DNA of 64,000 nucleotides from an uncultured virus (IMG/VR IMGVR_UViG_3300037400_001251) (Duplodnaviria > Heunggongvirae > Uroviricota > Caudoviricetes), in the IMG/VR virus record IMGVR_UViG_3300037400_001251. One strand, written 5' to 3'. The translations under genes and the position numbers were made by a program. Positions 7,387-61,705 of the stretch are shown here, piece by piece. Below the pieces are notes generated by a model, which was not told the DNA's origin, ran no database searches, and saw only the letters and a list, made by a program, of their open reading frames with translations. Each line of letters begins with the position of its first letter. Position 1 is the stretch's first letter.

Positions 7387-8208
7387 ATGGGAAAGACTAT
7401 ATTTGCTGGATTAGATTTAAGTAAGAATCATTTTGGTTTAACTTTACTCAATAACTTTGATAAAGATAATCAATTAGAGAACCTTTACTCTTATGTAAGT
7501 ATTTCTAATATGACTAAGAAACAAGTTAAAGAAACTAATGATGCTCCTTACTGTGTAAGTACAACAGCAATGGGTGGAATGTATGGCCCTGATAAAACTG
7601 CTAATTATGCTATATATGATATTAGGATTAACCCTAGGTTAAACAGAATAGAAATGGATGCAGTTAAGTCCATAGCTATTAATAAGTTGATATTATATAT
7701 CTTTAGGCTATGGACTGACTTACAATCAGATGATGAACTATTCGTTAGTCTAGAAGATTATATAGTTATGAATAATGGTATAGTTAGCCTAGTACATACA
7801 ACTGAAGATTTTAAATATAGATTTCTATCTAGTGATTATGATTATATGTATCCTAAGAATAGAACTCTTTTCTTATGTTGTAATAGTACTTGGAAAAAGT
7901 TACTAGGAAAAGAAGCTAGTGCTAAACCTACTGGTAAAGATAGGTATGAAAATATCAAGAACTATATTAAGAATAACGAACCAGAATGTTATGATATCTT
8001 AACAAGAGCATTAAAAGATAAGTCTGAAGATGTTAGGAAAGATATAATAGATTCTTGGGCATTAGCTAAAGCTGGTATGAAAAGAGACTTACCATTATTT
8101 AGAAACTATAGTAAAAGATTATTTAAATATAATGAAAATGAAAGGACTATAACTAATGACTTACAAGGATTTTATCGAGACTTATCTGAAGAAGTCTCGT
8201 TGTGGTAA
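7387..8208 (+). CDS. RuvC-like Holliday junction resolvase/nuclease
   Basis: AGLDLS, LEDY, DIIDSWALA acidic RNase H-fold motifs. Confidence 0.6.
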   Translation: MGKTIFAGLDLSKNHFGLTLLNNFDKDNQLENLYSYVSISNMTKKQVKETNDAPYCVSTTAMGGMYGPDKTANYAIYDIRINPRLNRIEMDAVKSIAINKLILYIFRLWTDLQSDDELFVSLEDYIVMNNGIVSLVHTTEDFKYRFLSSDYDYMYPKNRTLFLCCNSTWKKLLGKEASAKPTGKDRYENIKNYIKNNEPECYDILTRALKDKSEDVRKDIIDSWALAKAGMKRDLPLFRNYSKRLFKYNENERTITNDLQGFYRDLSEEVSLW

Positions 8209-9352
8209 AGTAGCTGAATTTATTGAACTTTTAGCTAACTGTAATTATAAGTATGATACAATAGCAAACTTATATGATGAAGGTTCTATAGGTTTTACTA
8301 TTGGTGACAATAATGATAAAAGTATTCTTATATACATTAAGAATTATAAGAATTCTTGGTCTATTAGTGTAGATGATACTTTACATAATATATCTGAAAA
8401 AGCTTATGGTACTAAGAAGATTAATATCTTAATTAATAAGCTATATGATATATTTACTAAACCTAAAAAGAATGTAATTATAGAAAACTTGTTCTTTGAT
8501 ATAGTAGTTAATTATATTAAGTTAACTAAGTCATTTCATAAACTAAATGATGAGATGAGAATGAGCTTTGACAATACTGCTAAGTTATTAGAACAGGTAG
8601 CAGACACTATAGAGTTAGAAGGAGATACTCTAATAGATCTATTTAAGATATATAAGTTCTTCAATGAAAGATTAAATAATCCTAATAATAATGTAGGATT
8701 CTTCTTCTTTGAAAAACTTGTTATAATGAATACCATATGTGATAAACTATTATCTTATATAGGGCAGGTTCATTATGAAGAACCTAACTCTAATGAAATG
8801 TGTAAGATAACTGCTGAATCTAATCCAATATGTTATGCTCATGTCTTACCATTCTACGGAGGTAAATGTCATAGATTACATGGTCATAATGGTAAGCTAT
8901 CTATTACTATGGAAGTAAGCAAAGACTTCTATATGAAAAGACCAATGATGGTTAGTTATGGTTTCTTAAAAGGTTTCCTTAAGTATATAGATAATATAAT
9001 GGACCATACAACTTTAATCCATATTAATAATAAGAATACTAATTTAAAATTAGATGGCGTTAATTTAGAAGTAGAATTGGATGTAGATAACATTAATATG
9101 AAATTAAAGGATGGGTATAATCTAATACCTAATATAGAAAATGTCCCAATAGGTTCTGCAGAAACAACTAGTGAAATGACATTGGTTAATTATGTAATGC
9201 CATTGTTTAAGATATTCTTAGTTGATTTTATATGTAAGGAAAGTATAGATCATACAGATCTTACATTCTTTGAATTAACAGAGCCAATAAGATTTGTATT
9301 TACATGGGGAGAAACTGATTCTACATATTGTAGTATTCCATTTTCGTTCTAG
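8156..9352 (+). CDS. queD: QueD-like 6-carboxytetrahydropterin synthase with long N-terminal extension
   Basis: AHVLPFYGGKCHRLHGHN, DHTTL, TTSE, WGET motifs in the C-terminal half. Confidence 0.75.
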   Translation: MTYKDFIETYLKKSRCGKVAEFIELLANCNYKYDTIANLYDEGSIGFTIGDNNDKSILIYIKNYKNSWSISVDDTLHNISEKAYGTKKINILINKLYDIFTKPKKNVIIENLFFDIVVNYIKLTKSFHKLNDEMRMSFDNTAKLLEQVADTIELEGDTLIDLFKIYKFFNERLNNPNNNVGFFFFEKLVIMNTICDKLLSYIGQVHYEEPNSNEMCKITAESNPICYAHVLPFYGGKCHRLHGHNGKLSITMEVSKDFYMKRPMMVSYGFLKGFLKYIDNIMDHTTLIHINNKNTNLKLDGVNLEVELDVDNINMKLKDGYNLIPNIENVPIGSAETTSEMTLVNYVMPLFKIFLVDFICKESIDHTDLTFFELTEPIRFVFTWGETDSTYCSIPFSF

Positions 9353-9406
9353 AGGTACTTTAAAAACTATAATATAATATTTTAATTTTTAAAGTTACCA
9401 AGGAGA

Positions 9407-10120
9407 GTGGAAGTTAAAATGTATGCTTGTCTAATAACACCAGGTATTGATTCTTCATTAAGTTATTTCTATTTAAGAGAAAAGATAGCTAAAGGTGAAG
9501 ATATCAAATTAATATATATTCCTATAAGTAAAAAGTATTCTGATATTGAAATAACTAGAATTAAACTAATGGAAAAATACTTTGAAAGAAAAGTGTTTAT
9601 ATATCCTTTTAATAATAGTTTAATTAATGAAGATAAGAATGCTTTTATCGCAGGTAGAAATACCTTACTAGCCACGTTAGTAGAATCATCTATTAATGAA
9701 AGACCATTAAGAATAGTATTTGGTTTTACTGCAGATGATAGAGTATATGATTCTGGTAAAGAATTTATGGATAAGCTTACATCTATACAATCTAGTGAAG
9801 TAAGCTGTATGGCACCAGCTATAGATATAACTAAGTCTAGATTAGTTAGATGGTTCTTTGAAGAATATAAGGCTGATTTCAATAAAGAAGATTTTAGTAA
9901 GTTGTTATATTCTTGTTATGAAGGAAAAGATGAACCATGTGGCTGTTGTAAAGCTTGTATAAGAGCAGCTACTTCACTATATCCTTATGTAGATATCAAA
10001 TTAAAAGAAAGTGTTCTTCCTCAGTTAAAGAATCTATTAGAAGATTATACAATATCTGAGGAACGTAGACGTAGTATTGTGAACTATGTCGGATCACATT
10101 TTTCTAATACCTTGTTTTAA
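9407..10120 (+). CDS. queC: QueC-like 7-cyano-7-deazaguanine synthase
   Basis: PP-loop variant TPGIDS, GRNTLL, SCY..PCGCCKAC zinc motif. Confidence 0.75.
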   Translation: MEVKMYACLITPGIDSSLSYFYLREKIAKGEDIKLIYIPISKKYSDIEITRIKLMEKYFERKVFIYPFNNSLINEDKNAFIAGRNTLLATLVESSINERPLRIVFGFTADDRVYDSGKEFMDKLTSIQSSEVSCMAPAIDITKSRLVRWFFEEYKADFNKEDFSKLLYSCYEGKDEPCGCCKACIRAATSLYPYVDIKLKESVLPQLKNLLEDYTISEERRRSIVNYVGSHFSNTLF

Positions 10121-18350: not shown

Positions 18351-19571
18351 ATGCCGATAGTAACTTTAATGGATGTTGATAAGTTTGTAGATCCTAAAAA
18401 AGAAGTTACTTCTGCTAATGTATTAACGACTAAAGGTAAGTTTGACAATAATGGCTTATTTAGTGAAACTATCTTTGGTTTAAATAATAGTAAAGATAGA
18501 AGTAAAACTTATGGATATATAAGCTTACATACTAAGATATTACACCCATTCATGTATGAGGTATATAAGAAAATTGAAGAAAAGATTATCTTGTTAATTG
18601 AAGGTAATACTATGTATTATAATGAACAAGATAAATTATTATTTAAAGAACAAGATAAAAATAATTCTTTAAAAGAAATAAGTGGCTTCGATGGAGCTAT
18701 GTATGCTATACATAATGGTGTAAACTATAGAGGCGATACTGATGTAAGATATAAGATAATAGAAAAACTTCAAGAAAACTTAGATAATGGATTAGCCTTT
18801 ATAGATAAAGTAATTGTTATTCCTCCATCTTATAGACCTGTTCAATTAAGTGACCAAGGTGAATTAGTAAGTATGGATGACTTGAATACGTTATATATAC
18901 AATTAATTAATGAAACTAAAAAGATTCAAATGATTAATAGTAATAATGATGATACAGGTCAAATGAGTGACAATGCTTTAATTAGAAGACAAATTCAATA
19001 TCTAGTAAATGAAATATACCTAATAGGTAAAACTAAACCAGCTAAAAAGTTTGGTTCTATTAGAGGACAACTATTAGGTAAAAGAGTTGACTTCTCTGCC
19101 AGATCTGCAATTACAGCTGGGTATGATGTACCTGCTGGTTCTTTAGGTGTACCATATAGAATTATAGCTAATATCTCTCAACCATTATTAATTCATTATT
19201 TCTGTAAACAACTTGTTCAAGATAGTCCTGATTATAATAAGTTAATGGATAATCTTGAAAAGAATGAATTTGATAAAAGTAATAATGTCCTAGTTATTAC
19301 TAATTGGTTAAAAGATATAGCTGAGAATAAGTGTAAATTAGATAAAGATGAAGTAACTTGGATTAAAGAAAAATTCCAAGAAGCTTTAGGTGATAATATG
19401 GTACTAATGAAAAGAGACCCGGCTATACATAAAGGAAGCTGGCAAAGTTTTCATCCTATAGTTTGTGATGGTAATACGATGAGAGTACCCATTACTAGGA
19501 CAGGTTTTTTTAACGCAGATTTTGATGGCGATTCCGTATTATGTAAGATAAGAGTTAGAATTTCTGATTAA
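18351..19571 (+). CDS. rpoC: RNA polymerase beta' N-terminal half, copy 1 (probably virion RNAP), ending in a 12-aa split-intein N-fragment
   Basis: GLFSETIFG, VIPPSYRP, LLGKRVDFSARS, RDPAIH, NADFDGD, then SVLCKIRVRISD*; no N-terminal Zn-binding Cys motif. Confidence 0.9.
   Translation: MPIVTLMDVDKFVDPKKEVTSANVLTTKGKFDNNGLFSETIFGLNNSKDRSKTYGYISLHTKILHPFMYEVYKKIEEKIILLIEGNTMYYNEQDKLLFKEQDKNNSLKEISGFDGAMYAIHNGVNYRGDTDVRYKIIEKLQENLDNGLAFIDKVIVIPPSYRPVQLSDQGELVSMDDLNTLYIQLINETKKIQMINSNNDDTGQMSDNALIRRQIQYLVNEIYLIGKTKPAKKFGSIRGQLLGKRVDFSARSAITAGYDVPAGSLGVPYRIIANISQPLLIHYFCKQLVQDSPDYNKLMDNLEKNEFDKSNNVLVITNWLKDIAENKCKLDKDEVTWIKEKFQEALGDNMVLMKRDPAIHKGSWQSFHPIVCDGNTMRVPITRTGFFNADFDGDSVLCKIRVRISD
19533..19568 (+). 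mobile_element. split intein N-fragment IntN1 (12 aa, Ser1)
   Basis: SVLCKIRVRISD directly after NADFDGD; complements the intein lacking block A at 23521. Confidence 0.75.
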
Positions 19572-19620: not shown

Positions 19621-19653
19621 CTATCTCAACTTTGAAAGGACAACAAGAAATGT

Positions 19654-23520: not shown

Positions 23521-24003
23521 ATGCAAGAGTTAATATGTGAAATTAAAGATTTAAAAGATAGAGTTGACTTATTCAAATTTAAAAGTAGAAAAGATAATGT
23601 TGAACATTATAAACCTATTAAAGATATAACTATACAATCTATTAATATTGATAATGGTTATTGTTCTTGGAATAGGATTACTGATTATAGTGTTCATTAT
23701 AATCTAGAGATGTATTCTATATTTGATCCCTTAAATAGATTTGAACAATTCTATGTATCTAGTGACCATTCTTTAATCGCTTGGGACGATAAAGAAGAAT
23801 GTATTAGAAAGGTAACACCATTAGAAGCAAAATCAAATGAATTTCTAATGGCAATAATATATCATGAAGAAGAAGATGATTATATATTAATACCTTTTAC
23901 AGAATTATTAATCGAACTAGATAAAACTAAAACTACAGGATATGATTTTACTGTAGAAAATGATTTCACATTTAGTACATTTGATGGTTTCTTTGTCCAA
24001 GAT
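23521..24003 (+). mobile_element. split intein C-fragment IntC1 (161 aa, ends VQD; +1 Thr)
   Basis: Block B VSSDHSL, block F GYDFTVE, block G DGFFVQD/T; no block A. Confidence 0.85.
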
Positions 24004-27000
24004 ACGGCAGCTATCTATATGCCATTAAGTATGGAATCTCAACAAGATTGCAAGAAGATGTATATACCAACAGGTATGAATAATAGTACTCAATTATCAT
24101 TAGAAATTAAGCATGAACTTGTATTAAGTGCATACATAATTACTGATAATAGAAAACCTATGAAGCCTGATTATGGCATTGTTACTTATAAGCAATTAAG
24201 AGAAGATAATATGATTGGCATTAAAGATAATGTTCATTGCCATCAAACTTGTACTTTAAAGTTGCCTAATGGTAAATCAATTAAAACTACATTAGGTAGA
24301 GCATTATTCAATTCCTTATTGCCAGATGAGTTTTTAAAGAAGAGATATAATTGGTTTTTAGATAAACAGATAAACAAGAAGATTCTAAATAGCGATATAA
24401 TATACAATCTATCTTTAGAATACACTATGGAAACTATGGCAGATATAGTTGATAACATAACTAATTTCTTAAGAGTATATACTAGTGTTTACCCTGCTTC
24501 ATTATTATTAGATGAGTTTATGGAAAACACTGTATTTAAAGCTCTTAAAGAGAAGTATGAAAAAGCTAAGACTATGGATGAGAAACAAGCTATCATAGGT
24601 GAAATAGAATCTAAATTTAAGACAGGCATTAGTGACGTTATGCCAATGATAGATTATATAGTGGCATCTGGTTCAAGAGGTGATCCTAGTCAGTTAAGAC
24701 AAATGCTAGTTACTAAAGGTTTAATACAAGATGCACAAGGTAATTTAATATCTATAAATGATTGTTATGTAGATGGTATGAAGCCTGAAGGAGCATTTAT
24801 GGATGGCTATGGTTCTAGAAAAGGTATTATGGACAGAAGTAGATCTACATCTGTTACAGGTTATCTTACTAGAAAAATAGTTTATGCTTGTGCTAGTGTA
24901 TTGTTAGATCCTGATTTAAACGATTGTGGAACTAAAAGAACTATTCCTGTAAAGATCACTAAAGATAATGCCATGTTATTATATGGTAGATATATGATTG
25001 ATTCTAAAGGAAAGAAGATTCTATTCGGTCCAGACAATCAAGACCAATATATAGGTAAGACAATGGATTTAAGATCTCCTATATATTGTAAGTCTAAAAA
25101 GTTGTGTAAGACTTGTTATGGCGACTTAGCTAAATTTTATGGTACTCCTTTTGTAGGCATCTTAGCAGCTAATGCTTTGGGAGAACGCGGAAGTCAAGAA
25201 ATAATGAAGACCTTTCATTGCTTAGACGCCTCAACAGGTGTTTTCCTTGATACAAAGAACGGAAAGTCGCTTGAATGCCTAGGTTCATTGTTTAATAAAT
25301 TTGAAGATAAAAAAGAATTTACTTTAAATGGAACTCAAGAAGAAATAGATCTTAGTGATAAAGATATTAAAGCAGATAACAATGGCAAATGGACAAAGGT
25401 TCTTAGAATAATTAGGCACAAACGTAATCCAAATAGTTCTTTGATTTACTTAAGAACCAGCGATGGTCATGGTATTACTTTACAAGACAACCATCCTATA
25501 GCTATTCAAAACGATGAAGGTTATTCTTTTATAGAACCAAAAGATGTTAAGCACAAGAAAGATAAATTAATTATAAGCAATAATAATATATGGCAAGATA
25601 CAAAAAGATCTTGTTTTATAGATGCTTATATATTAGGATATTATCTTGGAGATGGTTGCATTAAATTTGGTAGTACCAATAAGAATAAGCCTGAAGACAA
25701 AAGACCTTTAGATGTTCTTATAGATTGTCCATTAAATACAAAATCTATACAGCATTCTAATTTAATGAATATGCTAAATGAATATGGTTATCGTAGTGTA
25801 TCAGATACAGATAAATGTATAATCATAAGAGACAATGATTTAGCTAAGAAGATTCATGAAGAAACTGGTAGATATTCTTATGCTAAGCATTTACCGATTG
25901 ATTATATATATTATAATGATGAAGATCTATGTAAGATATTATGTGGCTTAATAGACAGCGACGGTTGTGTTCAGTCTAAAGATGGTTATATAGCATTGGT
26001 AGTATTTGAAATGAGTAGTGGTGCTATAATTAATGCTATGTGTAACATATTAGATAAATTCGGAGTAAAATATAATGTATGTACTAAGCCTGGTGGTAAA
26101 ACTAAGATATTAGGTAAAGACACGTTTGCTAGAATGTCTTACGGATTAACATTATATCCTAAAACTATACACGAGGAAATATTTAAGTACTCTGTTAAAT
26201 TTCAAGGTAAACATTGTAGTCCTAAAATTATGACTAGACGTGTTCCTAATAATATAGTTACTTACATTGGCAAAGCAAGTCTAAAAGAAGAAACTGATTA
26301 TGTCTATGACTTAATGACTGAAGACCATCAGTTTAGTGCTAATGGAATATTAGTTCATAATACCGCAGGCGCTGTAAGTGTAGTTATACCTGATTTAATA
26401 CAACAAGCTTTGGACAACAATCCTAACTTAACTAAAGATCAAATGTCTAAATACTTTAAGCAAGATGGTTATCAATTAAAGTTTAATGTTAATCAAGAAG
26501 TTGAATTAACATTAAGACATGATGAATATCTTGATTCAGGTATGACTGAATTTACATTAGATCCAGAAAAATCTGGTATTATAAAAGATTCTACTATTGA
26601 AGGTACTAATATTCAGAGTGCTTTAGATCTTAAACCATTTGCAGGCCATGTCCAATTTGCTGATGGAACTAATTTAGAAATAATACTAGATGATGAAGTT
26701 TTCATACCTTATGAATTCTTTGAAACTAGAGAAGAGGGTAAGAATGCCGAAGGTATTAAATGTATTGTATTAAAAGGTAATACTAAAGATATTCCATTCT
26801 TATTCAGTACTGTTATAGCTAGTAAAGATTTGAATGTAGTAATGAAAACTATATTAGGTATTATTGAGAAAAAGAATATTATGAAATATCCTGAAGTGGC
26901 ATTTAATAAGTTAACTAAGATATATGGTGATGGTTTTAAAGTTGCATATAACCATATTGAAATCCTAATATCTCAGATATTTAGAAATAAGATGAAACCA

Positions 27001-27213
27001 GAATATCCTGCTAGATTAATCGAGCCTTATTCTGCTCAAGTATATGGTATTAAGTATATATCACATCTAGAAGGATTCTTATCTGGCATGTTATTTGAAA
27101 ATATGGGTAAATCATTACAGAATGGTTTTATTAATGATACTGTTACACATAATCCTATGGAACAATTACTTAGCGATGATTTTGATTTCTTAAGAGAAGA
27201 TAAGGAGGACTAG
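23521..27213 (+). CDS. rpoC: RNA polymerase beta' C-terminal half, copy 1, with N-terminal split-intein C-fragment and internal cis-intein
   Basis: Extein starts TAAIYMPLS (= QMAVHVPLS); TTLGR, SGSRG, SRKGIMDRSRSTSVTGYLTRK bridge helix, DCGT, RSPIYC, CKTCYG, GERGSQEIMKTFH/TAG trigger loop. Confidence 0.9.
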   Translation: MQELICEIKDLKDRVDLFKFKSRKDNVEHYKPIKDITIQSINIDNGYCSWNRITDYSVHYNLEMYSIFDPLNRFEQFYVSSDHSLIAWDDKEECIRKVTPLEAKSNEFLMAIIYHEEEDDYILIPFTELLIELDKTKTTGYDFTVENDFTFSTFDGFFVQDTAAIYMPLSMESQQDCKKMYIPTGMNNSTQLSLEIKHELVLSAYIITDNRKPMKPDYGIVTYKQLREDNMIGIKDNVHCHQTCTLKLPNGKSIKTTLGRALFNSLLPDEFLKKRYNWFLDKQINKKILNSDIIYNLSLEYTMETMADIVDNITNFLRVYTSVYPASLLLDEFMENTVFKALKEKYEKAKTMDEKQAIIGEIESKFKTGISDVMPMIDYIVASGSRGDPSQLRQMLVTKGLIQDAQGNLISINDCYVDGMKPEGAFMDGYGSRKGIMDRSRSTSVTGYLTRKIVYACASVLLDPDLNDCGTKRTIPVKITKDNAMLLYGRYMIDSKGKKILFGPDNQDQYIGKTMDLRSPIYCKSKKLCKTCYGDLAKFYGTPFVGILAANALGERGSQEIMKTFHCLDASTGVFLDTKNGKSLECLGSLFNKFEDKKEFTLNGTQEEIDLSDKDIKADNNGKWTKVLRIIRHKRNPNSSLIYLRTSDGHGITLQDNHPIAIQNDEGYSFIEPKDVKHKKDKLIISNNNIWQDTKRSCFIDAYILGYYLGDGCIKFGSTNKNKPEDKRPLDVLIDCPLNTKSIQHSNLMNMLNEYGYRSVSDTDKCIIIRDNDLAKKIHEETGRYSYAKHLPIDYIYYNDEDLCKILCGLIDSDGCVQSKDGYIALVVFEMSSGAIINAMCNILDKFGVKYNVCTKPGGKTKILGKDTFARMSYGLTLYPKTIHEEIFKYSVKFQGKHCSPKIMTRRVPNNIVTYIGKASLKEETDYVYDLMTEDHQFSANGILVHNTAGAVSVVIPDLIQQALDNNPNLTKDQMSKYFKQDGYQLKFNVNQEVELTLRHDEYLDSGMTEFTLDPEKSGIIKDSTIEGTNIQSALDLKPFAGHVQFADGTNLEIILDDEVFIPYEFFETREEGKNAEGIKCIVLKGNTKDIPFLFSTVIASKDLNVVMKTILGIIEKKNIMKYPEVAFNKLTKIYGDGFKVAYNHIEILISQIFRNKMKPEYPARLIEPYSAQVYGIKYISHLEGFLSGMLFENMGKSLQNGFINDTVTHNPMEQLLSDDFDFLREDKED
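25219..26361 (+). mobile_element. cis-intein with LAGLIDADG homing endonuclease (381 aa)
   Basis: CLDAST start, LQDNHP block B, ILGYYLGDG and LCGLIDSDG, VYDLMTEDHQFSANGILVHN/T end. Confidence 0.93.
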
Positions 27214-27951: not shown

Positions 27952-29721
27952 ATGTGTGGAATTTTTGGATGTTTTAAAAATTGTGTTTCTACTCTACCAT
28001 TAATAGACAATTATATAATGAATATTATGGTAGACAAAGCTAAGCTAAGAGGTGATGATGGCTTTGGCTTTACAGTTAATGGTTTACTGACATCTAGAAT
28101 AACTGATAGACATACTAGATATGAAGATCTTGTCAAAGATGGAAGAAGCGACTTTGATAGATATAATAGTAACACTGGTCATATAGATTGGGTACTGTTA
28201 AATTGTAGAGCTAAACCTGAAACAGAACCACCTACTAGTTTAACTAATCTTCAACCAATAATGACTAGAAGAATGGTTGACAATGGAATGGGCATAGGTT
28301 CTTATATAGTTCATAACGGAAGTTTATCTAATGACTTTGTAGAACAAGTCTATAGAGAATGTGATTATAAACCTGATACTAAAATAGATAGTGAAGCATT
28401 TACAGCTATATTATTAAATGCTTATTATCAATATACAGATAACTATAAAAATCTAAATCTTGTAGATTTCTTAAAGCAATATTTCAAAAGATATTTTAGT
28501 ATAGCTGATGGTGGCTTTGCCATGATAGGCAATCTTATATGGAGTGATATGACTAACATATTTGTCGTAGCATGTAAATATCAGCCATTGTATGAACTAG
28601 AAATTAACATTATAGGTGTAGGTAAATATTATTATCTGCATAGTGTAAAGGAGGCGCTAGAAGATGTTCAAGACTATATTACTGAAAACCTTATACGAGA
28701 TAATGAAATTGTTTTCACATTAAGAGAATTTCCGCCATATACATTTAAACTATATATAGATAGTCCATATCTAAAAGGATTTACTGAAGAAAGTAAATTT
28801 ACACCAACATATAGTTATCCTATAATAGATAACCCATGTCTAAGGAAAAAGATTCTTGTTAGTACTAGTGGTGGAATAGATAGTACTTGTTCTCTAATGA
28901 TGGCATATAACTTAACTAAAAATTATGATGAACAATATGATATAGAAGCTGTTCATTTTAAATATGGTCATAGAGGGCAAGAAGCTGAAGAACAAGCTAT
29001 TAGAAAAATTATAGATGAGGCTAATAAGAAAGAAGATATCAATATAACATTAAAGGTAGTTAATTTAGAATCTATTTATAAAGACTTCTTTAATGTTAAA
29101 AATTCTCAACTAATAGATAAAGAAGCTAATGTAGAAACAGGTTCTAACGATAAGATTAAAACTACTATAGCTTGGGTGCCAGTTAGGAATATGTTATTCC
29201 AAACATTAATGTATGGATTAGCTGAAACCTATATATTAGAACAAGGATATAAGGATGTCTATATAGTGGCAGGATGGAACCAATTATCTGAAGAAGGATT
29301 CTATCCAGATAATAGCACTAGGTTTACTAATGCTATGAGTTTAGCATCTAAGTTTGGTACATTAGTAGGACATAGAATTCATAACTGGAATATCTGTAGT
29401 AGATTATTGAAATCAGATGAATGGGCATTAGCTAAACTATATGACTTCTTAGATCTATATCAATATACAATAAGTTGTGACTGTCCAGTAAAAGATAAAG
29501 ATACTTATTATAACTGTAATGGACAATGTGGTTCAACTATATTAAGTCAGATAGCTAGTAAAAGATATATTGGTATAAAAGATCCAAGAGTATTTAAAAA
29601 GAATCCTAATATCGTAGTAGATAAACCTTTTGAATACTATGAGGAGGAACCAGTGGAATTAGATACTACAATTATAAAAGAAATCAAAAATAGGATACTA
29701 GATATTAATAGTTGTGACTAG
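27952..29721 (+). CDS. class II glutamine amidotransferase-QueC fusion (Gat-QueC)
   Basis: MCGIFG, RGDDG, HNG, IDSE (Ntn GATase); SGGIDS, WVPVRN, YPDNS, TISC (QueC). Confidence 0.85.
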   Translation: MCGIFGCFKNCVSTLPLIDNYIMNIMVDKAKLRGDDGFGFTVNGLLTSRITDRHTRYEDLVKDGRSDFDRYNSNTGHIDWVLLNCRAKPETEPPTSLTNLQPIMTRRMVDNGMGIGSYIVHNGSLSNDFVEQVYRECDYKPDTKIDSEAFTAILLNAYYQYTDNYKNLNLVDFLKQYFKRYFSIADGGFAMIGNLIWSDMTNIFVVACKYQPLYELEINIIGVGKYYYLHSVKEALEDVQDYITENLIRDNEIVFTLREFPPYTFKLYIDSPYLKGFTEESKFTPTYSYPIIDNPCLRKKILVSTSGGIDSTCSLMMAYNLTKNYDEQYDIEAVHFKYGHRGQEAEEQAIRKIIDEANKKEDINITLKVVNLESIYKDFFNVKNSQLIDKEANVETGSNDKIKTTIAWVPVRNMLFQTLMYGLAETYILEQGYKDVYIVAGWNQLSEEGFYPDNSTRFTNAMSLASKFGTLVGHRIHNWNICSRLLKSDEWALAKLYDFLDLYQYTISCDCPVKDKDTYYNCNGQCGSTILSQIASKRYIGIKDPRVFKKNPNIVVDKPFEYYEEEPVELDTTIIKEIKNRILDINSCD

Positions 29722-44535: not shown

Positions 44536-45753
44536 ATGAGTAACAATCAAAACATCAACATTAACCTAATTAACAATCTTTTCTCTTCTCTAACTAGTGG
44601 TAAAATCACTCTTAATTTTGGCGATACTGAAATTAATGTAGATATTACTGTTAATAGAAAAGGTAATATTGTTGAACAAGTAGCTAACAAGATTATAGAA
44701 GAAGTAGATAAAGATGAATCTCATAAGCATTTGCCTTTAAAGTATTATCCTATATCTGAAAATATAGATATGGATAGAGTGAATTATCTAGAAAAATTTC
44801 GTACTAAAGATTCAGATCCTATAATAGGTGAAGACAGCAAAGAATTAAAGAAAGAAGAAACTGGTTGGTTTAAAGGTGAATTTAGATATCGTGGTGAAAA
44901 CAGAACTAGTTTACATTATTATGAAGATGGTATAGCTGTTTGTGATACTGGTATAGTAAGTAGAAACCACATATTAAATGAAACCACAGTTAAGGTAGAT
45001 AATCCTGTAACTGAAGAATGTTGTAAGAAATGCTTATTAGTTTTAGCTAAAAGAAAAACAGCTACTTATAAAGAAATCAAACAATCTAAGAGTGTTAATG
45101 CCACTGGTTGGTATTTAAGAATGACTGATTCTAGAAAAGGTATCTATAAGCATTTCTATAAAGATGGTCATACTATTTGTAGAAATCATTGGTCATTAAC
45201 AACCATAGATAGAGAAACTAATCTAGATACTGATAAAGAGTATAAGATATGTAAAGTTTGTCTAGAAAAAGCCAAAGCACATACTAGAGCAGATCTATCT
45301 AATAAGAAAGTAATTAAAACTTTAGCACCCAAAGATGTTATAACACCAACAGAAATGTTAGAAAGATGGAATAAGAATCTAGTATTATTCGGAGAACCTG
45401 TTCCATTAAAAAGTAATTTAGAAACCGATGATGTTTATGCTGAAGCTGCTAAACGTATGTTAGTAGTTTATAGAAAACCTATCAATAATATTATGAGAAA
45501 ATTATCTTCTGATAATAGAATGACTGTTGATTCTACTACAGTTAAATTCTATTGTAAAAATAAGCTAGTAGAATTAACTGTTATTAGAAATGATAATAAG
45601 AGAAATAGTGAACTATCTATCAAGAAGATTAATATTACTGATAGAACATCACCTAACCAAAGAATTACTGGCACTGCCTATGATATGACATCTATGGTTA
45701 CTAGAGTTATTTTAGAAAGGAGTCGTAAGTTAAAAGATGAAGAAGAAGATTAA
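44536..45753 (+). CDS. protein with two tandem putative Zn-binding repeats
   Basis: TGW..HYYEDG..C..CKKC and TGW..HFYKDG..C..CKVC. Confidence 0.55.
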   Translation: MSNNQNININLINNLFSSLTSGKITLNFGDTEINVDITVNRKGNIVEQVANKIIEEVDKDESHKHLPLKYYPISENIDMDRVNYLEKFRTKDSDPIIGEDSKELKKEETGWFKGEFRYRGENRTSLHYYEDGIAVCDTGIVSRNHILNETTVKVDNPVTEECCKKCLLVLAKRKTATYKEIKQSKSVNATGWYLRMTDSRKGIYKHFYKDGHTICRNHWSLTTIDRETNLDTDKEYKICKVCLEKAKAHTRADLSNKKVIKTLAPKDVITPTEMLERWNKNLVLFGEPVPLKSNLETDDVYAEAAKRMLVVYRKPINNIMRKLSSDNRMTVDSTTVKFYCKNKLVELTVIRNDNKRNSELSIKKINITDRTSPNQRITGTAYDMTSMVTRVILERSRKLKDEEED

Positions 45754-47476
45754 AAAACTAGTTTTATGGGATTTTGAAGCTGTCAAAGGTGAAGCTGTTA
45801 CTTCTGATAAAATAGTAGAGAAGAAACGGTTCCACCCAGATGGCTTATATTCCGAAAGGATCTTTGGACCCATTAAGGATTATGTTTGTAGTTGTGGAAC
45901 ATTTAATCCTAATGGGGGTGTTTGTCCTGTCTGTGGTGTAAGATTTGGGCCTAGTAGTTTAAGAAGTACTACTTTTGCTCATATCAAATTACCAACAGAA
46001 GTGATTAATCCCTTGTTCATGTGGTCTTTAACATCTAGAACTAAGAATAAGAATTGTAAAATAGATGTTCCTTCATTAATAGAATATAAGTCATTTCTAT
46101 ATATTCCTAATGATAGACCTGAAGAAATAGTTCAATATGATAACTATAGATATAACTATCAAAAATTATCATATGAAAAGATGAAAGAATTAGAAGAACA
46201 AGGGTTAGATCCAAACACTTATGTATTAGATATTAATGGTGAATCTGTTTCTAATAATTTTAATAAGTTAACTGATGAAGAAAAAGCAGCTTTTAAAGAA
46301 GCTTATGAATCTAAGCATAAATTCATTGGTGCTCAAGCTATATTAAAATTAATAGATTGGCTAGAAGAGAATATAGCTAAAGATAAAGAATTTAATGTAG
46401 AAGAATACATTCGTAGAAAAGAATGGGATCTAATTATTAAATTTAAAGACAAAATTACCATTAATATTATACCTGTTATACCTCCAGATTTAAGACCTAT
46501 GATGTTTACTGGTAATAATATGAGTGTGGCTGAAACATTAACTAGATATTATACCACATTATTAACTAAAGTAAATATCATGAAAAATAAGACTAAGTTC
46601 ATTAAAGATGTTAGTTCATTAACTTGGAAGAATTATGAAGATCTACAAAAACAAGTTAATGAAATCTATAATGAAATTATGGATGTCTTTGGCGGTAAGA
46701 CTGGTATTATTAGAGCCAATATTTTAGGTAAAAGAATTGACTATTCAGGTAGAGCTGTAATAGCAATAGATCCATCTCTAAAATATAACGAATGTAGAGT
46801 TCCTTACCATATGGCATTAGAAGTCTATAAATATGAGTTTGCTAGATATCTTGCTAAGAAAGAAAACAAGACTATATTAGTAATACTCAAAGATATAGAA
46901 GAATCTTTAAAGTTAAGGGACTATCGTTTAATAGATGAATTAGAAGATTGGATTAAAGATAAGCCAACTCTATTGAATAGACAACCGACATTACATCAGT
47001 ATGGCATGTTAGCTTTCAATACTAAGCTTTCAAGTGACAGTACTTTGAAAATCAGCCCTACATGCACGTCTGCGTATAATGCTGATTTTGATGGGAAAAA
47101 TTCCTCAACCATGCCTATTTGCGACATATTGTAAATAGGTCTAAATATTCCCATCATTAAAGTTCGGAAAATCGGTGGAGCCTAAACTTGTAAAATCAAG
47201 CATGGTAATACCGAGATCCCATAGAAATCACTAGGGATTGTAACGCATAGGTAGTGAACGTTAAGAGAGTAATAATCTACCCACGAGTCCGGACCATATA
47301 CTATAATAATTATAGTTGGAAAATATATGCTGAGCTATACCGAAAGGTATAGAAGTAAGGGATAAAAAGCCTTTACGGTAACATAACTGGATAGTGCTTT
47401 AGGTGATGTAAAACTTAAAGTAAATGGTAAAATCATAGAATCTGCAATAGAAAATGTATTTAATATAGAAATCTAA
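45737..47476 (+). CDS. rpoC: RNA polymerase beta' N-terminal half, copy 2 (probably non-virion RNAP); join(45737..47095,47390..47476); ends in a 27-aa split-intein N-fragment
   Basis: GLYSERIFGP, CSCG..CPVC Zn domain, VIPPDLRP, LGKRIDYSGRAVI, LNRQPTLH, YNADFDG; exon 2 restores D and adds SALGDVKLKVNGKIIESAIENVFNIEI*. Confidence 0.88.
47096..47389 (+). ncRNA. ORF-less group I self-splicing intron (294 nt)
   Basis: IGS 47146-47156; P3 gttcgga/tccggac; P4 tcggt/accga; P6 atccc/gggat; P7 gcata/tatgc; P7.1 ggtag/ctacc; P9 ctatacc-GAAA-ggtatag; terminal G; removal restores NADFDGD in frame. Confidence 0.88.
47393..47473 (+). mobile_element. split intein N-fragment IntN2 (27 aa, Ser1)
   Basis: SALGDVKLKVNGKIIESAIENVFNIEI, block-A-like; complements the intein at 59735. 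Confidence 0.8.
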
Positions 47477-47482
47477 TTATAA

Positions 47483-47523
47483 GGGCCTAGGTAAATTAAT
47501 ATTTTATCTAGGCCTATTATTTA
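47483..47523 (+). terminator. hairpin/terminator after beta'-N copy 2
   Basis: ggcctaggtaaa / tttatctaggcc stem followed by T-rich tract. Confidence 0.6.
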
Positions 47524-47549
47524 TCTCAACTTTGAAAGGATATATCTTA

Positions 47550-48008
47550 ATGTTATATAAGATTAAAAGATGGCTTTATAGATTATGGTATAAGAAACCT
47601 ATTAACATTGATAAGCATAATAGCTGGTATCAATGGCTAAAGGCTAATTGGCAGAAAGATAATATGTTTCCTCCTCCAATAGATCCTGAATTAGCTTTAT
47701 GTTATTTATCAGATTATCTGTTAGATATTAAAACTACACCTGAAGATATTGATGTACATGATACAGCTTTAAAGATAACTGAGAAATATCTAGGTAAATC
47801 TATTAAGATTGATGAAACACTTTTACCTTATCAGGTAATGAATAAGTTATTTGAAGCTATGTTAATTGAAACGAATTTAAGCGGTTATATAGACAATCCT
47901 ATAACACAGTGGCAATGCCATACTGAGATAGTATCTGGCATCTTACAAGAATACTCAGATGATTATAATGAAGAATATGAATACTATAATAATAGAAAGG
48001 ACAACTAA
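47550..48008 (+). CDS. hypothetical protein
   Basis: ATG after AACTTTGAAAGGA. Confidence 0.55.
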   Translation: MLYKIKRWLYRLWYKKPINIDKHNSWYQWLKANWQKDNMFPPPIDPELALCYLSDYLLDIKTTPEDIDVHDTALKITEKYLGKSIKIDETLLPYQVMNKLFEAMLIETNLSGYIDNPITQWQCHTEIVSGILQEYSDDYNEEYEYYNNRKDN

Positions 48009-54002: not shown

Positions 54003-54527
54003 GTGAGATTATGGCATTACCAATTATTGCCTGGTTTACCTAAAGAGCAGTTAATATCACAATGGAGAGAATGCTGTAAGATAGCTTATGATATTAAAGC
54101 TACAGGTAAACCAACTAATCACTTATTAATTAATAAGATTAATGACTATCCTTTAGATGAATTTAAGATATACTGTAATCTATTAATCAAAGAAATGAGC
54201 AAACGTGGTATTAAGGTAAGCAGATCTACTATGGATAAGTTATATGATTGCCTTAAAGAATACTGTAATATTATAGTAGATAATAGTAAGCCTATCTTTA
54301 AGAATTGGCATAACTATACGTATATGGATATATGTTTCTATAACTTAAATGAGAAATACCTATGTGGTGGTATCACTAATGAAGATTGGTTAAAATTTAA
54401 AAATATTTACTTTGAAAGGAGAACATTACTAAATGAAGGACAAATTGGGAGACAGAATGAAGAAATACGAAAGTACGGAAACTCAAAGGTTTCTTCAACC
54501 TGGGTTACCTATTCTTGTAAGGATTGA
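54003..54527 (+). CDS. pyrimidine-dimer DNA glycosylase/DenV-like family protein
   Basis: MRLWH..LPKEQLISQWREC..EMSKRG..NLNEK. Confidence 0.6.
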   Translation: MRLWHYQLLPGLPKEQLISQWRECCKIAYDIKATGKPTNHLLINKINDYPLDEFKIYCNLLIKEMSKRGIKVSRSTMDKLYDCLKEYCNIIVDNSKPIFKNWHNYTYMDICFYNLNEKYLCGGITNEDWLKFKNIYFERRTLLNEGQIGRQNEEIRKYGNSKVSSTWVTYSCKD

Positions 54528-55611
54528 TGGTAAAGCATTTCATACATATACTAAAGGAATGAAAAAACCTTTTGATGAAACTTTAGTAAATGCTTTTATT
54601 GAAACAACTAAAAAGTTAGTAGAAAAATGCAATGCTGTAATAGGGTATACTCAATCAGATGAAATAACTTTAATATTACCTGATGATAGAGATACCATGT
54701 TTGAAAGAAAAATTCATAAACTAGATTCTGTTATATGTAGTATGGCTACTATGTACTTTAATAGTTTCATGCCTGAAGATAAAAGATATGCTACATTCGA
54801 TTGTAGAGTATGGAATGTTCCTAATAGGAGTGAAGCTATTAATTGTTTGATATGGAGAGAACTAGATGCCACTAAGAATGCCATTAGTATGGCAGCATCT
54901 TGTTTCTATAGTCATAAGCAATTACTTAATAAGAATAGTAAAGAAAAGTTAGAAATGCTTCAATTAAAAGGTGAAAAATTTGATGAATATCCTGTATTCT
55001 TTAGAAGAGGAACTTACATCAAAAAGGTATTAGAAGAACGTAGATTTTCTAAAGAAGAAATAGAAAAGTTACCACCTAAACATGAAGCAAGATTAAATCC
55101 AGACTATTGTTATTTGAGAAGTAATTATGTTCAATTAGATATGCCACCATTAGCTAAGATTCAAAATCGTATAGACTATGTATATTACAATGAACCATAT
55201 ATTACAGATATTACTAGTGATAAAGCATTCTTAAAAGATTTCGTTTATGCTTATAGATGGTTGTTTGAACATCCTATATTCAATGAGCAATTAGAATCTA
55301 GAATGTGGATAACTGCAGTAAAGGTAAATCCCAATACTAATGAAGTAGATGATGACCATAATCTTAATACTGATAATAGAATATGGTTAGAACCACAAAC
55401 TTATGATGATAAAGAAGATACATTTTATGGTGATCTAGATTTAGAATGTGGTGGTAAGACCTTTGAAGAAGCTATATTAAGATTAGCTAATCTAGTTTAT
55501 CAAAAGTATGGTACTTATACTCATGATGAAGCACATCAGATAATGATGGAAAGAATAGCTAGAATTAATTCTAAAACTAAAGAACAAGATACAACAGGAG
55601 ATACTAAATGA
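54433..55611 (+). CDS. tRNA-His guanylyltransferase Thg1-like protein with extra C-terminal domain
   Basis: LGDRMKKYE, RIDGKAFHTYT, YTQSDEI, FDCR, WRELDATKNAIS. Confidence 0.88.
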   Translation: MKDKLGDRMKKYESTETQRFLQPGLPILVRIDGKAFHTYTKGMKKPFDETLVNAFIETTKKLVEKCNAVIGYTQSDEITLILPDDRDTMFERKIHKLDSVICSMATMYFNSFMPEDKRYATFDCRVWNVPNRSEAINCLIWRELDATKNAISMAASCFYSHKQLLNKNSKEKLEMLQLKGEKFDEYPVFFRRGTYIKKVLEERRFSKEEIEKLPPKHEARLNPDYCYLRSNYVQLDMPPLAKIQNRIDYVYYNEPYITDITSDKAFLKDFVYAYRWLFEHPIFNEQLESRMWITAVKVNPNTNEVDDDHNLNTDNRIWLEPQTYDDKEDTFYGDLDLECGGKTFEEAILRLANLVYQKYGTYTHDEAHQIMMERIARINSKTKEQDTTGDTK

Positions 55612-59734: not shown

Positions 59735-60193
59735 TTGAAGCTTTTTAAAGAAGTTCGTAAAGATGTAAAAGAAAACGGTGTTGTTGTAACTCATTATGAA
59801 CCACAAGCTGATGTTACCATTATGTCAATGAATATTGAAAATGGTAAGTTTGAGGAAAAGAAGATAACTGATTTTAGTAAGCATGAAAATATTAAGATGT
59901 ATAAGTTTCATGATGCTATTGAAAGATTTAAAGATTTTTGGTTATCTGATAATCATAGTGCTATTGTTAGAGATAAGCAAACTAGTTTATATGGTAAAGT
60001 AACTCCTATGGATATTATATTAGATCCTAATAGATATGAACTAGTTCAAATGATAGGTAGTCCATTATCTAGAAGATTTATACCATGTGATCAAATAGAA
60101 GTTACATTAGATGAAAGTAAAACCATAGGATATGACTTTACAGTAGAAGATAATTATACTTTTACAACAGATGATGGAGTAGTTGTCCAAGAT
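59735..60193 (+). mobile_element. split intein C-fragment IntC2 (153 aa, ends VQD; +1 Ser)
   Basis: Block B LSDNHSA, block F GYDFTVE, block G DGVVVQD/S; clearly homologous to IntC1. Confidence 0.85.
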
Positions 60194-61705
60194 AGTATGG
60201 CTGCTTATTTTACTATGACACAAGAAGCTCAAGACAGTTTAATTAAGCATTGTCATATAGATAATAACTTGTTCACTAACTTTAATAATGAATTAACATT
60301 ATCCTTAGGACATGATATAGTTTATGGGATATTCTTATTAAGTAAAAGAAAACCATCAGCTTTGCCAGAACCATTATATAATTATATGGTAGAAAAGAAA
60401 TGGGATTGTATTAATAAGAAAAGATTAGCAGAGTTTCTTAACTATTATATTAGATTAGATAAAAAGAAACATGCTGATATCGTTAATAAGTTAGTTACAT
60501 TAGGATTCACTATATCTAGTAGGTATAGTCAAACTTTACTATCTTTCGATAATATTAAGAAGTCTATTATTCCTGCAGATAAAAGAAAAGCCTTGTTTGA
60601 TAAATACATGAACAAGGAAATAACTATGTATCAGTATGTTCAAGAAGAAGATAAAATGATAGATGACTTGAAAAAGATATGTCTATTTACAGATCTTATT
60701 GAATCAGGTTCAAGAGGTTCATGGCAACAAGCTAAACAGATGTTCTGTCAAAGAGGTTTCGTTACTAATTCGGCAGGTCATATCAAACCTATTCCTGTAT
60801 GGAAGAACTTAACTGAAGGATTAGATAGTAGATCTATGTTCTTATCATGCTATGGTGTTAGAAAAGGTTTAGCTGACGTAGCAGATAATACTGCTGTATC
60901 TGGTGCATTTACTAGAGGTCTTATATATCTAGGTTTAGAAGCTAGACAAAGTAGTTCTAAAAAGCCATGTAATACTACTAATTATTTAAGGTTTAAACCT
61001 GATAATGAAAAGATGGCATCCGCTCTAATTGGTAGATATATCTTTAATGATGATTTGTGTACTAGTATGACTAGAATTACATATGACAATTATAAAGATT
61101 TCATTGGACAAGAGTTAAGGTTAAGATCACCAATATTCTGTACTGAAAAAGAATATTGTCATTACTGTTGTCCACATAAAGAATTATCTGAATTAGAACC
61201 AGGTAAAAGTTACAATGTTGGTGTCGTCGCCGCAGGAGCATTGAGTGAACCACTCACACAGTTGACACTTAGACAATTCCATACGAGTGGCGCGGTCACA
61301 AAAATATCAGACGGAGAAGATGATGACCAAGACAAAGATATCACCTACGATATACGTGGTATTCAAAGAATGTTCTCGAAACCTGATTTTGATATATACA
61401 CTGTAAATGATTGGGTAAAGAAACTTTACTTATCATTCTTAGATAAGAAGAATATCAAACTAATGTTATATGAAGTATTAGCATCTTGTCTGATGTGGGT
61501 TAAACCTGAAGATGATGATGAACCTAATGTTCATTGGAGATTAGCCCAGGATAGAGAATTACTATTAGTAGGATATTCTAAAGTTCCTGAATATGAATCA
61601 TTCCTATTAGGTGCAGCATTTAAGAACTTTAAGAGAAAACTATTATCATCTATCGGTAAGGAAGTAGGTGGAAGTAGATTCGATAGAATGATAATAGGTA
61701 ACTAA
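59735..61705 (+). CDS. rpoC: RNA polymerase beta' C-terminal half, copy 2, with N-terminal split-intein C-fragment
   Basis: TTG start after AGGAGG; extein SMAAYFTMTQEAQ; SGSRGS, GVRKGLADVADNTAVSGAFTR, RSPIFC, SEPLTQLTLRQFHTSG. Confidence 0.9.
   Translation: MKLFKEVRKDVKENGVVVTHYEPQADVTIMSMNIENGKFEEKKITDFSKHENIKMYKFHDAIERFKDFWLSDNHSAIVRDKQTSLYGKVTPMDIILDPNRYELVQMIGSPLSRRFIPCDQIEVTLDESKTIGYDFTVEDNYTFTTDDGVVVQDSMAAYFTMTQEAQDSLIKHCHIDNNLFTNFNNELTLSLGHDIVYGIFLLSKRKPSALPEPLYNYMVEKKWDCINKKRLAEFLNYYIRLDKKKHADIVNKLVTLGFTISSRYSQTLLSFDNIKKSIIPADKRKALFDKYMNKEITMYQYVQEEDKMIDDLKKICLFTDLIESGSRGSWQQAKQMFCQRGFVTNSAGHIKPIPVWKNLTEGLDSRSMFLSCYGVRKGLADVADNTAVSGAFTRGLIYLGLEARQSSSKKPCNTTNYLRFKPDNEKMASALIGRYIFNDDLCTSMTRITYDNYKDFIGQELRLRSPIFCTEKEYCHYCCPHKELSELEPGKSYNVGVVAAGALSEPLTQLTLRQFHTSGAVTKISDGEDDDQDKDITYDIRGIQRMFSKPDFDIYTVNDWVKKLYLSFLDKKNIKLMLYEVLASCLMWVKPEDDDEPNVHWRLAQDRELLLVGYSKVPEYESFLLGAAFKNFKRKLLSSIGKEVGGSRFDRMIIGN

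Follow-up and report, generated by a model that had tools for sequence, protein, structure and literature searches.

How a phage RNA polymerase β′ subunit could be made from a reading frame that breaks off inside its own catalytic motif is the question raised by this locus. It lies in a stretch of 64,000 nt (hereafter the window) from an uncultured Caudoviricetes virus (IMGVR_UViG_3300037400_001251), which, judging from its gene content, probably comes from a phage with a very large genome. The window contains two β′-like RNA polymerase genes. On the basis of Pfam Rpb1 domains, both are split in two at the catalytic motif, one into 18351-19571 and 23521-27213 and the other into 45737-47476 and 59735-61705, all on the plus strand. 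The N-terminal part of the second gene begins with exon 1 (45737-47095; Pfam RNA_pol_Rpb1_2, E 1.7e-22, and Rpb1_1, E 8.8e-12), which closes with the first six residues of the NADFDGD motif (codons 47078-47095). As an earlier note on this DNA had pointed out, the open reading frame (45737-47134) lacks the third catalytic Asp; it stops 12 codons past the motif Gly, inside an insert. The partner gene (59735-61705; Pfam Rpb1_5) encodes a C-intein, IntC2, and the remainder of β′. The paralogous N-part (18351-19571) is intron-free in the window, with GGC as its Gly codon, and its partner (23521-27213) encodes a 161-aa C-intein followed by the remainder of β′.

The insert (47096-47389, plus strand) is 294 nt long, has a G+C content of 36% (versus 28% in the window), carries stops in all three frames and ends in G. 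Its boundaries were examined by a cut-pair test, in which every 5′ position from 47080 to 47145 was combined with every 3′ position from 47370 to 47400. Only two cut pairs restored NADFDGD in frame, both giving the same mRNA, and of these 47095/47389 alone leaves a terminal G. The proposal that excision of 47096-47389 restores NADFDGD and appends a 27-aa N-intein, IntN2, is borne out by this test and by uninterrupted alleles, three of which (P0001, P0072 and P0076) fix the junction. The uninterrupted homologues P0001, P0002, P0072 and P0076 end in 27-28 aa look-alikes of IntN2. Exon 2 (47390-47476, plus strand) has the predicted length of 87 nt and comprises the third catalytic Asp (47390-47392), the 27-aa IntN2 with Ser at position 1 (47393-47473) and a stop. 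These coordinates support the further suggestion that the intron and intein splice sites lie one codon apart. A terminator-like hairpin is located 3′ of exon 2 (47483-47515, plus strand; one found versus 0.3 expected in a consensus scan).

Every helix that the earlier note had named for a full group I core (P3, P4, P6, P7, P7.1, P8 and a GAAA-capped P9) pairs base by base. The catalytic core, consisting of P3, P4, P5, P6, P7, P7.1 and P8, spans 47162-47331 on the plus strand. P3 is formed by 47162-47168 and 47288-47294 (7/7 pairs), P4 by 47172-47177 and 47209-47214 (6/6 pairs), P6 by 47215-47220 and 47234-47239 (6/6 pairs), and P7.1 by 47250-47254 and 47277-47281. P7 (47245-47249 with 47326-47330; 5/5 pairs) is extended by A47243-U47331 and a bulged C47244, beside which the G47245-C47330 pair forms the G-binding site. 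P9, with its GAAA loop (47335-47341 with 47346-47352), P9.1 (47355-47361 with 47370-47376) and a family-typical 3′ end occupy 47335-47389 on the same strand. The characteristic group I features are present: the P3-P7 pseudoknot, the P4-P6 domain, P8, P9, a terminal G, and an internal guide that forms P1 and P10. The folding z-score of the insert is −4.05, and none of 100 shuffles was equally stable. Ribosome bypassing was rejected as a reading of the insert, by inference from its length of 294 nt, the lack of a matching landing codon and the presence of a full ribozyme core.

Covariation was examined in a MAFFT alignment of 19 sequences, comprising the window and the cores of 18 relatives. Two-sided changes were found in 25 of the 33 core pairs, and 99.5% of the cells were paired. 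This level was reached in none of 500 shuffles, and slid controls were paired at 32-45%. The rows had been preselected for at least five P3 pairs, which biases the P3 count but leaves the other helices unaffected. The G-binding G-C pair is kept in all 19 sequences, and the neighbouring pair alternates between A-U (10) and G-C (9).

A blastn search with the intron gave 29 phage records of similar DNA sharing its 3′ end point, and in three of the four records opened the intron-like DNA separates the halves of a gene. A 27-nt pattern was found at no fewer than 120 viral loci. From the pattern and blastn loci, 18 ORF-less introns with readable ends were hand-picked, and removal gives an open frame for 17 of them. 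An nhmmer profile built from these 18 phage introns, with the window left out, gave a single match in the 64 kb (47141-47391; 118.7 bits, E 1e-35) and none in 20 shuffles. The profile also matches both introns of Lactobacillus phage JCL1032, in genes annotated as joins in GenBank. The JCL1032 terminase intron (EU409559) scores 102.8 bits and has 62% core identity to the window intron, with which it shares the core, P7.1, the conserved 3′ end and a P2-less layout. The window intron matches the JCL1032-terL-like family at 118.7 and 107.8 bits, with 57-68% core identity to the 18 relatives, and the profile match together with the common P7.1, J7/3 and 3′ end places it in that family. The JCL1032 introns reportedly self-splice. 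The terL/tape-measure relatives probably correspond to the IA1-class TMP-IVS3/term-IVS1 group of PMC2504315. At the level of sequence, we regard it as confirmed by the nhmmer profile, the covariation and the cut-pair test that the insert is a real, ORF-less group I intron with correct bounds.

The Rfam covariance model RF00028, which had been proposed as a check, came out negative: no match was obtained at the gathering score in the whole window or at E values up to 10 in 46800-47700. In control searches, RF00028 matched only two places in ten loci, neither of them a close relative, and it likewise missed the JCL1032 terL intron. The JCL1032 tape-measure intron, by contrast, is matched by RF00028 at 59.4 bits and by the family model at 53.1 bits. 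Because RF00028 also misses close relatives, the absent match, which makes up the first half of the earlier note's refuting condition, is no valid test and does not refute a group I intron, and a review of phage introns calls this model incomplete (PMC11878797). The family is large (L005-L124 and L287-L310; at least 120 viral loci match the 27-nt pattern alone) and was missed by RF00028 in the controls tried; several loci (L061, L288 and L296) hold two members each.

The 5′ splice site is the most unusual feature of the intron and the main risk to the claim that it splices. All 18 relatives have U at the last exon position, as part of a U·G pair, whereas the window intron does not. Its 5′ exon ends in G, a point passed over in the earlier note; neither motif-restoring cut gives a U end, and a search over all cut pairs for a U-ended 5′ exon found none that restores the motif. 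The 5′ strand of P1 (47089-47097, plus strand), which spans the splice site between 47095 and 47096, forms nine Watson-Crick pairs with 47148-47156. The internal guide sequence (47146-47156, plus strand) pairs through 47150-47156 with the 5′ exon (P1) and through 47146-47149 with exon 2 (P10). All 11 guide bases are thereby matched, seven of them to the end of exon 1 and four to the start of exon 2; equal pairing anywhere in the region was reached by 112 of 20000 shuffles. In a 78-nt fold, the G47095-C47150 pair has a probability of 0.999. The profile aligns C47150 with the guide G of the relatives, and C47150 precedes the P3/P4 marker by 19 nt, as does the guide G in the P2-less L033, L098 and JCL1032 terL introns. 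This correspondence indicates that the U·G pair is turned into G-C through changes on both sides.

The G-C pair was read directly in one assembly only, that of the window. For another strain, represented by one contig of DNA run X4, the tally of changes contains zero C>G and is compatible with G47095>T or C47150>T. Because no C>G occurs among these changes, the guide base of the X4 strain is not G either, which supports the G-C pair indirectly. Older biochemistry on the P1 pair found U·G to be best and C·A and C-G to be tolerated. The U·G pair is described as critical and highly conserved (PMC4227781; PMC11835236), and in the open-licence PMC and bioRxiv literature we found no report of a G-C pair at a 5′ splice site.

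JCL1032 and the Firmicutes phage and prophage terL/tape-measure introns have a short P1 loop as well as the U·G pair, whereas the P1 loop of the window intron is about 52 nt long, approximately 45 nt larger than in its relatives. The loop contains a 12-bp hairpin predicted by folding (47113-47140, plus strand), which holds the read-through stop (47132-47134) and, unlike P2 of the relatives, has no GNRA loop. A precedent for a long loop is provided by Bacillus recA introns, which are described as having ORFs in the P1 loop (PMC2677866). As a speculation, an endonuclease gene, since lost, may have left the enlarged loop behind as a scar. No homing endonuclease was detected by Pfam, either in the intron or as a free-standing gene among the 38 window proteins scanned, which represent part of the window ORFs.

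The distribution of the intron was examined in an allele set consisting of the ten members of a 90% protein cluster, the window's own among them, all identical in at least 444 of 453 residues upstream. Three alleles contain no insert, and in these the frame continues across the motif and closes with a 28-aa tail. The read-through of the window intron is common to five (window included), although one of the five has it in a different frame. The remaining two have different read-throughs. The first intron bases differ between strains. The X4 contig, with 75 differences and five gap letters over 45604-47540 (1937 nt), retains both the intron and an unbroken exon 2, with no gap in between. Because five of the ten alleles share the read-through and X4 retains both intron and exon 2, the interrupted gene appears to persist in several strains; it is presumably essential. 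The intron appears to be present in the other β′ paralog as well, because P0237, an allele of 18351-19571 in another strain, ends in the same read-through. Compared by eye with the tail found in alleles that lack the intron, exon 2 agrees at only about 13 of 28 positions, versus 0-6 differences in the 153 residues of IntC2 over seven alleles. From this disparity, between alleles that cannot be linked to one another, exon 2 probably arrived together with the intron.

Several observations bear on the surroundings of this site. Just 3′ of exon 2 (window 47540-47548), an additional 583 letters are present in the X4 contig, which may represent a gene, for example that of a free-standing endonuclease. 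The read-through starts with Phe in P0238 (a paralog allele), P0003, P0004 and P0077, and that of P0079 differs again. These five proteins may contain further inserts at the same codon, and the back-read peptide of P0079 offers a lead to a second intron with a guide C. A 20-mer from the intron's 5′ end gave no viral matches and a single match, due to chance, in a bacterial gene, no close DNA relative turned up when viral contigs were scanned with single proteins, the family of the window intron was absent from 160 β′ loci, and 120 loci matching the P1 pattern contained no intron core.

We infer that the intron splices from its intact core, the two-sided change in P1 and the persistence of the interrupted gene in several strains. 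The alternative that a real intron was crippled by the loss of U·G, so that the subunit is absent or present only in traces from interrupted alleles, is in our judgement unlikely. It is favoured by the U at the last exon position of 18/18 relatives, and no spliced RNA was seen in RNA runs X1-X3 (word shares 0.06-0.07), whose contigs, limited to exon 1 fragments and unrelated intron ends, do not extend across the junction. A crippled intron would, however, hardly be expected to combine exon G with guide C and to keep P10 and all core helices intact. Exon 1 (444-453 of 453 residues identical), X4 exon 2 and IntC2 show no decay, and the intron has reached a second gene.

Splicing at the same site could also use a short local P1 (47090-47096 with 47101-47106), which would retain a wobble, in the form of a reversed G·U. 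The read-through peptides of P0073, P0074, P0075, P0078 and P0237 preserve the 47101-47106 tract, whereas the bases preceding it vary. This short helix is 5.4 kcal/mol less stable than the long-range P1 and has a pair probability of 0.0 versus 0.999; moreover, it requires a bulge and yields no P10, and the profile places the guide at 47150. We therefore consider its use improbable. Guarded preference, only a little beyond an even chance, goes to an active and still-spreading group I intron outside the IStrons, whose U·G has become a Watson-Crick G-C with no U·G nearby. Such an intron could occupy GGG codons closed to ordinary ones, move between paralogs and carry a swapped N-intein exon.

The view that exon 2 supplies a split intein's N-fragment is upheld by Ser1, by the Ser at +1 and by its profile coverage, which complements that of IntC2. 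IntC2 consists of 153 aa (59735-60193), ends in Gln-Asp and is followed by Ser at +1. Its AlphaFold model (pLDDT 89.7) has the Aes123 PolB1 split intein (9hth) as the top Foldseek match (E 1.6e-6), and the matches listed are Hint domains, which supports a predicted Hint/intein fold. On an intein profile built from two contiguous and ten long-N relatives, IntN2 covers positions 1-26, weakly when taken alone (E 0.014), and IntC2 covers 26-122. The paralog pair covers 1-11 (IntN1) and 16-120 (IntC1). IntN1 (19533-19568, plus strand) is a 12-aa N-intein with Ser1 that ends the paralogous N-part, and IntC1 (23521-24003, plus strand) is the 161-aa C-intein, which ends in Gln-Asp with Thr at +1. The N- and C-fragments were assigned to each other because they cover one intein profile in a complementary manner. 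A tblastn search of GenBank phages with IntC2 gave no match, and no report of a split intein at NADFDGD in a phage polymerase was found in the open-licence PMC and bioRxiv literature.

Both split inteins of the window thus end in Gln-Asp in place of the usual His-Asn. These non-standard residues, together with a literature search for Asp-ended inteins that gave nothing usable, leave some room for a reading in which the RNA is spliced but the intein docks or cleaves without ligating, the two halves then acting as a non-covalent pair. We doubt this reading. Val-Gln-Asp-Ser is invariant in 7/7 aligned IntC2 homologues and also closes the contiguous inteins of P0012 and P0013, and removal of both intron and intein yields the exact spacing of intein-free relatives. 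The Chy RIR1 intein, which ends in Asp, is said to splice. P0012 and P0013 have two tandem inteins at this motif, the contiguous one and, directly after it, a short N-fragment of a split one. Twelve relatives (P0018, P0019, P0030, P0035, P0037, P0039, P0041, P0042, P0045, P0048, P0083 and P0096) have N-fragments of approximately 130-150 aa, and the same lineage also occurs with N-fragments of 27-39 aa and 12 aa. Because these forms coexist, the intein lineage appears to have been split at several sites. Further along 23521-27213 there is an additional contiguous intein with a LAGLIDADG domain; in 59735-61705 the equivalent site contains no intein, and the residues on either side of it vary between alleles.

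We think it likely that the catalytic motif of one β′ gene carries a stack of two selfish elements, a split intein and a younger ORF-less group I intron. The older intein would have inserted after the third Asp and been split after 27 residues, its C-part now lying 12 kb away. The younger intron, of the widespread JCL1032-terminase-intron family, would then have inserted one codon upstream of the intein. In the transcript, the long-range P1 would fold with the last G of the exon paired to C47150, guanosine would attack after G47095, P10 would align exon 2, and ligation to 47390 would restore the Asp codon together with the N-intein. After translation, IntN2 would dock on IntC2, and Ser-based trans-splicing would join the halves. 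The earlier proposal that the subunit needs RNA splicing and then protein trans-splicing is supported in this respect, as read from the DNA. Since the intron does not encode an endonuclease, it may have spread by borrowed homing or by hitch-hiking, probably with the flanking exon 2.

In this scheme, unspliced mRNA would give a dead-end fragment, which we interpret as a cost and not as control. The earlier note had instead suggested a regulatory checkpoint, with conditional splicing gating the production of active polymerase. It is true that every unspliced message would logically give an inactive, non-ligatable fragment. The enlarged P1 loop with its stop-bearing hairpin and a competing short P1 (−17.5 versus −22.9 kcal/mol) could allow translation to affect folding, and a riboswitch-controlled group I intron is described in C. 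difficile (PMC3984707). Evidence against the suggestion, however, comes from the three of ten near-identical alleles that are insert-free, the two with other read-throughs and the presence of the read-through in the other paralog. In addition, the motif is uninterrupted in all 121 distinct motif-bearing relatives in which it can be read, the initial intron bases vary between strains, and no riboswitch, aptamer or other Rfam family was found in the window. We regard a checkpoint as quite improbable. Because its presence is polymorphic and it has jumped between paralogs, the intron is better described as a selfish element at a conserved site.

Descent from an IS607-type (group B) IStron, of which the insert would be a remnant, is very improbable. 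Such elements choose sites after TGGG and are spliced after G, and TGGG, the target motif described for CboIStron, does close the 5′ exon (10.1101/2023.11.20.567912), but no TnpA/TnpB remnant or long AU-rich 3′ stem is present, the first intron base is A and not U, so that no shifted U·G can form, the 3′ end is ordinary for the phage family and does not finish in GG, and the core is that of the phage terL/tape-measure family. The group B IStrons BcISt1 and CboIStron resemble the window intron in having a 5′ exon that ends in G, and splicing after G, which has been shown for both and by RT-PCR for BcISt1, provides a precedent (PMC4227781; 10.1101/2023.11.20.567912). They differ in that, according to the text of these sources, IS607 IStrons spliced after G keep a U·G one step away, start with U and encode TnpA/TnpB; the window intron has none of these and belongs to a different ribozyme lineage. 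The P1 drawings in PMC4227781 could show a splice-site G-C for group B IStrons, which would narrow the difference. An IS-less IA2 intron of Turicibacter is also described there at a GG-ending site (PMC4227781).

A parallel to the combined arrangement is provided by polr2a and polr2b of Bodo saltans virus, in which group I intron splicing is followed by intein splicing and ORF-less 'offspring' introns occur (PMC5871332). That virus is a eukaryotic giant virus with contiguous inteins, whereas the window gene has a split intein. A group I intron in the catalytic codons of a jumbo-phage RNA polymerase is described for PhiPA3 gp210, but it is located in the β subunit, encodes an HNH nuclease and, in the account given, has no split intein after it (10.1101/2023.09.30.560319). 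PolB16, with a 15-aa IntN, and Aes123 PolB1 (PMC10189870; PDB 9hth) share with IntN2/IntC2 a cysteine-independent, atypically split organization with Ser1/Ser+1, a Hint fold and, in the case of PolB16, a short N-fragment. The window intein differs from them in its RNA polymerase β′ host, its C-terminal Gln-Asp and the placement of its N-fragment on an exon of its own behind an intron. Intron-rich gut phages are described in PMC12880540 and PMC7886860.

An intron and an intein in one RNA polymerase gene have already been published (PMC5871332). What stands out at this locus is the G-C pair of the splice site, together with split inteins whose N-fragments are very short. If spliced, the intron would be a natural ribozyme that chooses its 5′ splice site without U·G and would allow one of the rules of group I catalysis to be tested directly and at low cost. 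It could also be useful for trans-splicing and RNA-circularising ribozymes, which are limited to U sites. Introns with a G-C pair, if real, would be invisible to RF00028, which misses this family. The largest group I database would exclude them by its own criteria, since, as described, it admits only introns with a U-ended 5′ exon (PMC11835236). The gene pair supplies Ser1 split inteins with N-fragments of 27 aa and 12 aa and a C-terminal Asp, and the 12-aa IntN1 is shorter than the 15 aa termed the shortest characterised in PMC10189870. As gene regulation the locus carries little weight, since the accumulation of introns and inteins in polymerase genes is already known.

Some minor features of the window were also observed. 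An identical 18-mer is found at 19622-19639 and 47522-47539, in each case beyond the hairpin that follows the N-intein gene, and nowhere else in the window (0.01 expected). The downstream neighbour gene (47532-48008) matches Pfam Tad8, an inhibitor of type II Thoeris (E 9.8e-10). QueD-like, QueC-like and glutamine-amidotransferase-like ORFs (by eye), together with a Thg1 guanylyltransferase (Pfam), are located at 8156-10120, 27952-29721 and 54433-55611, and may represent a base-modification pathway.
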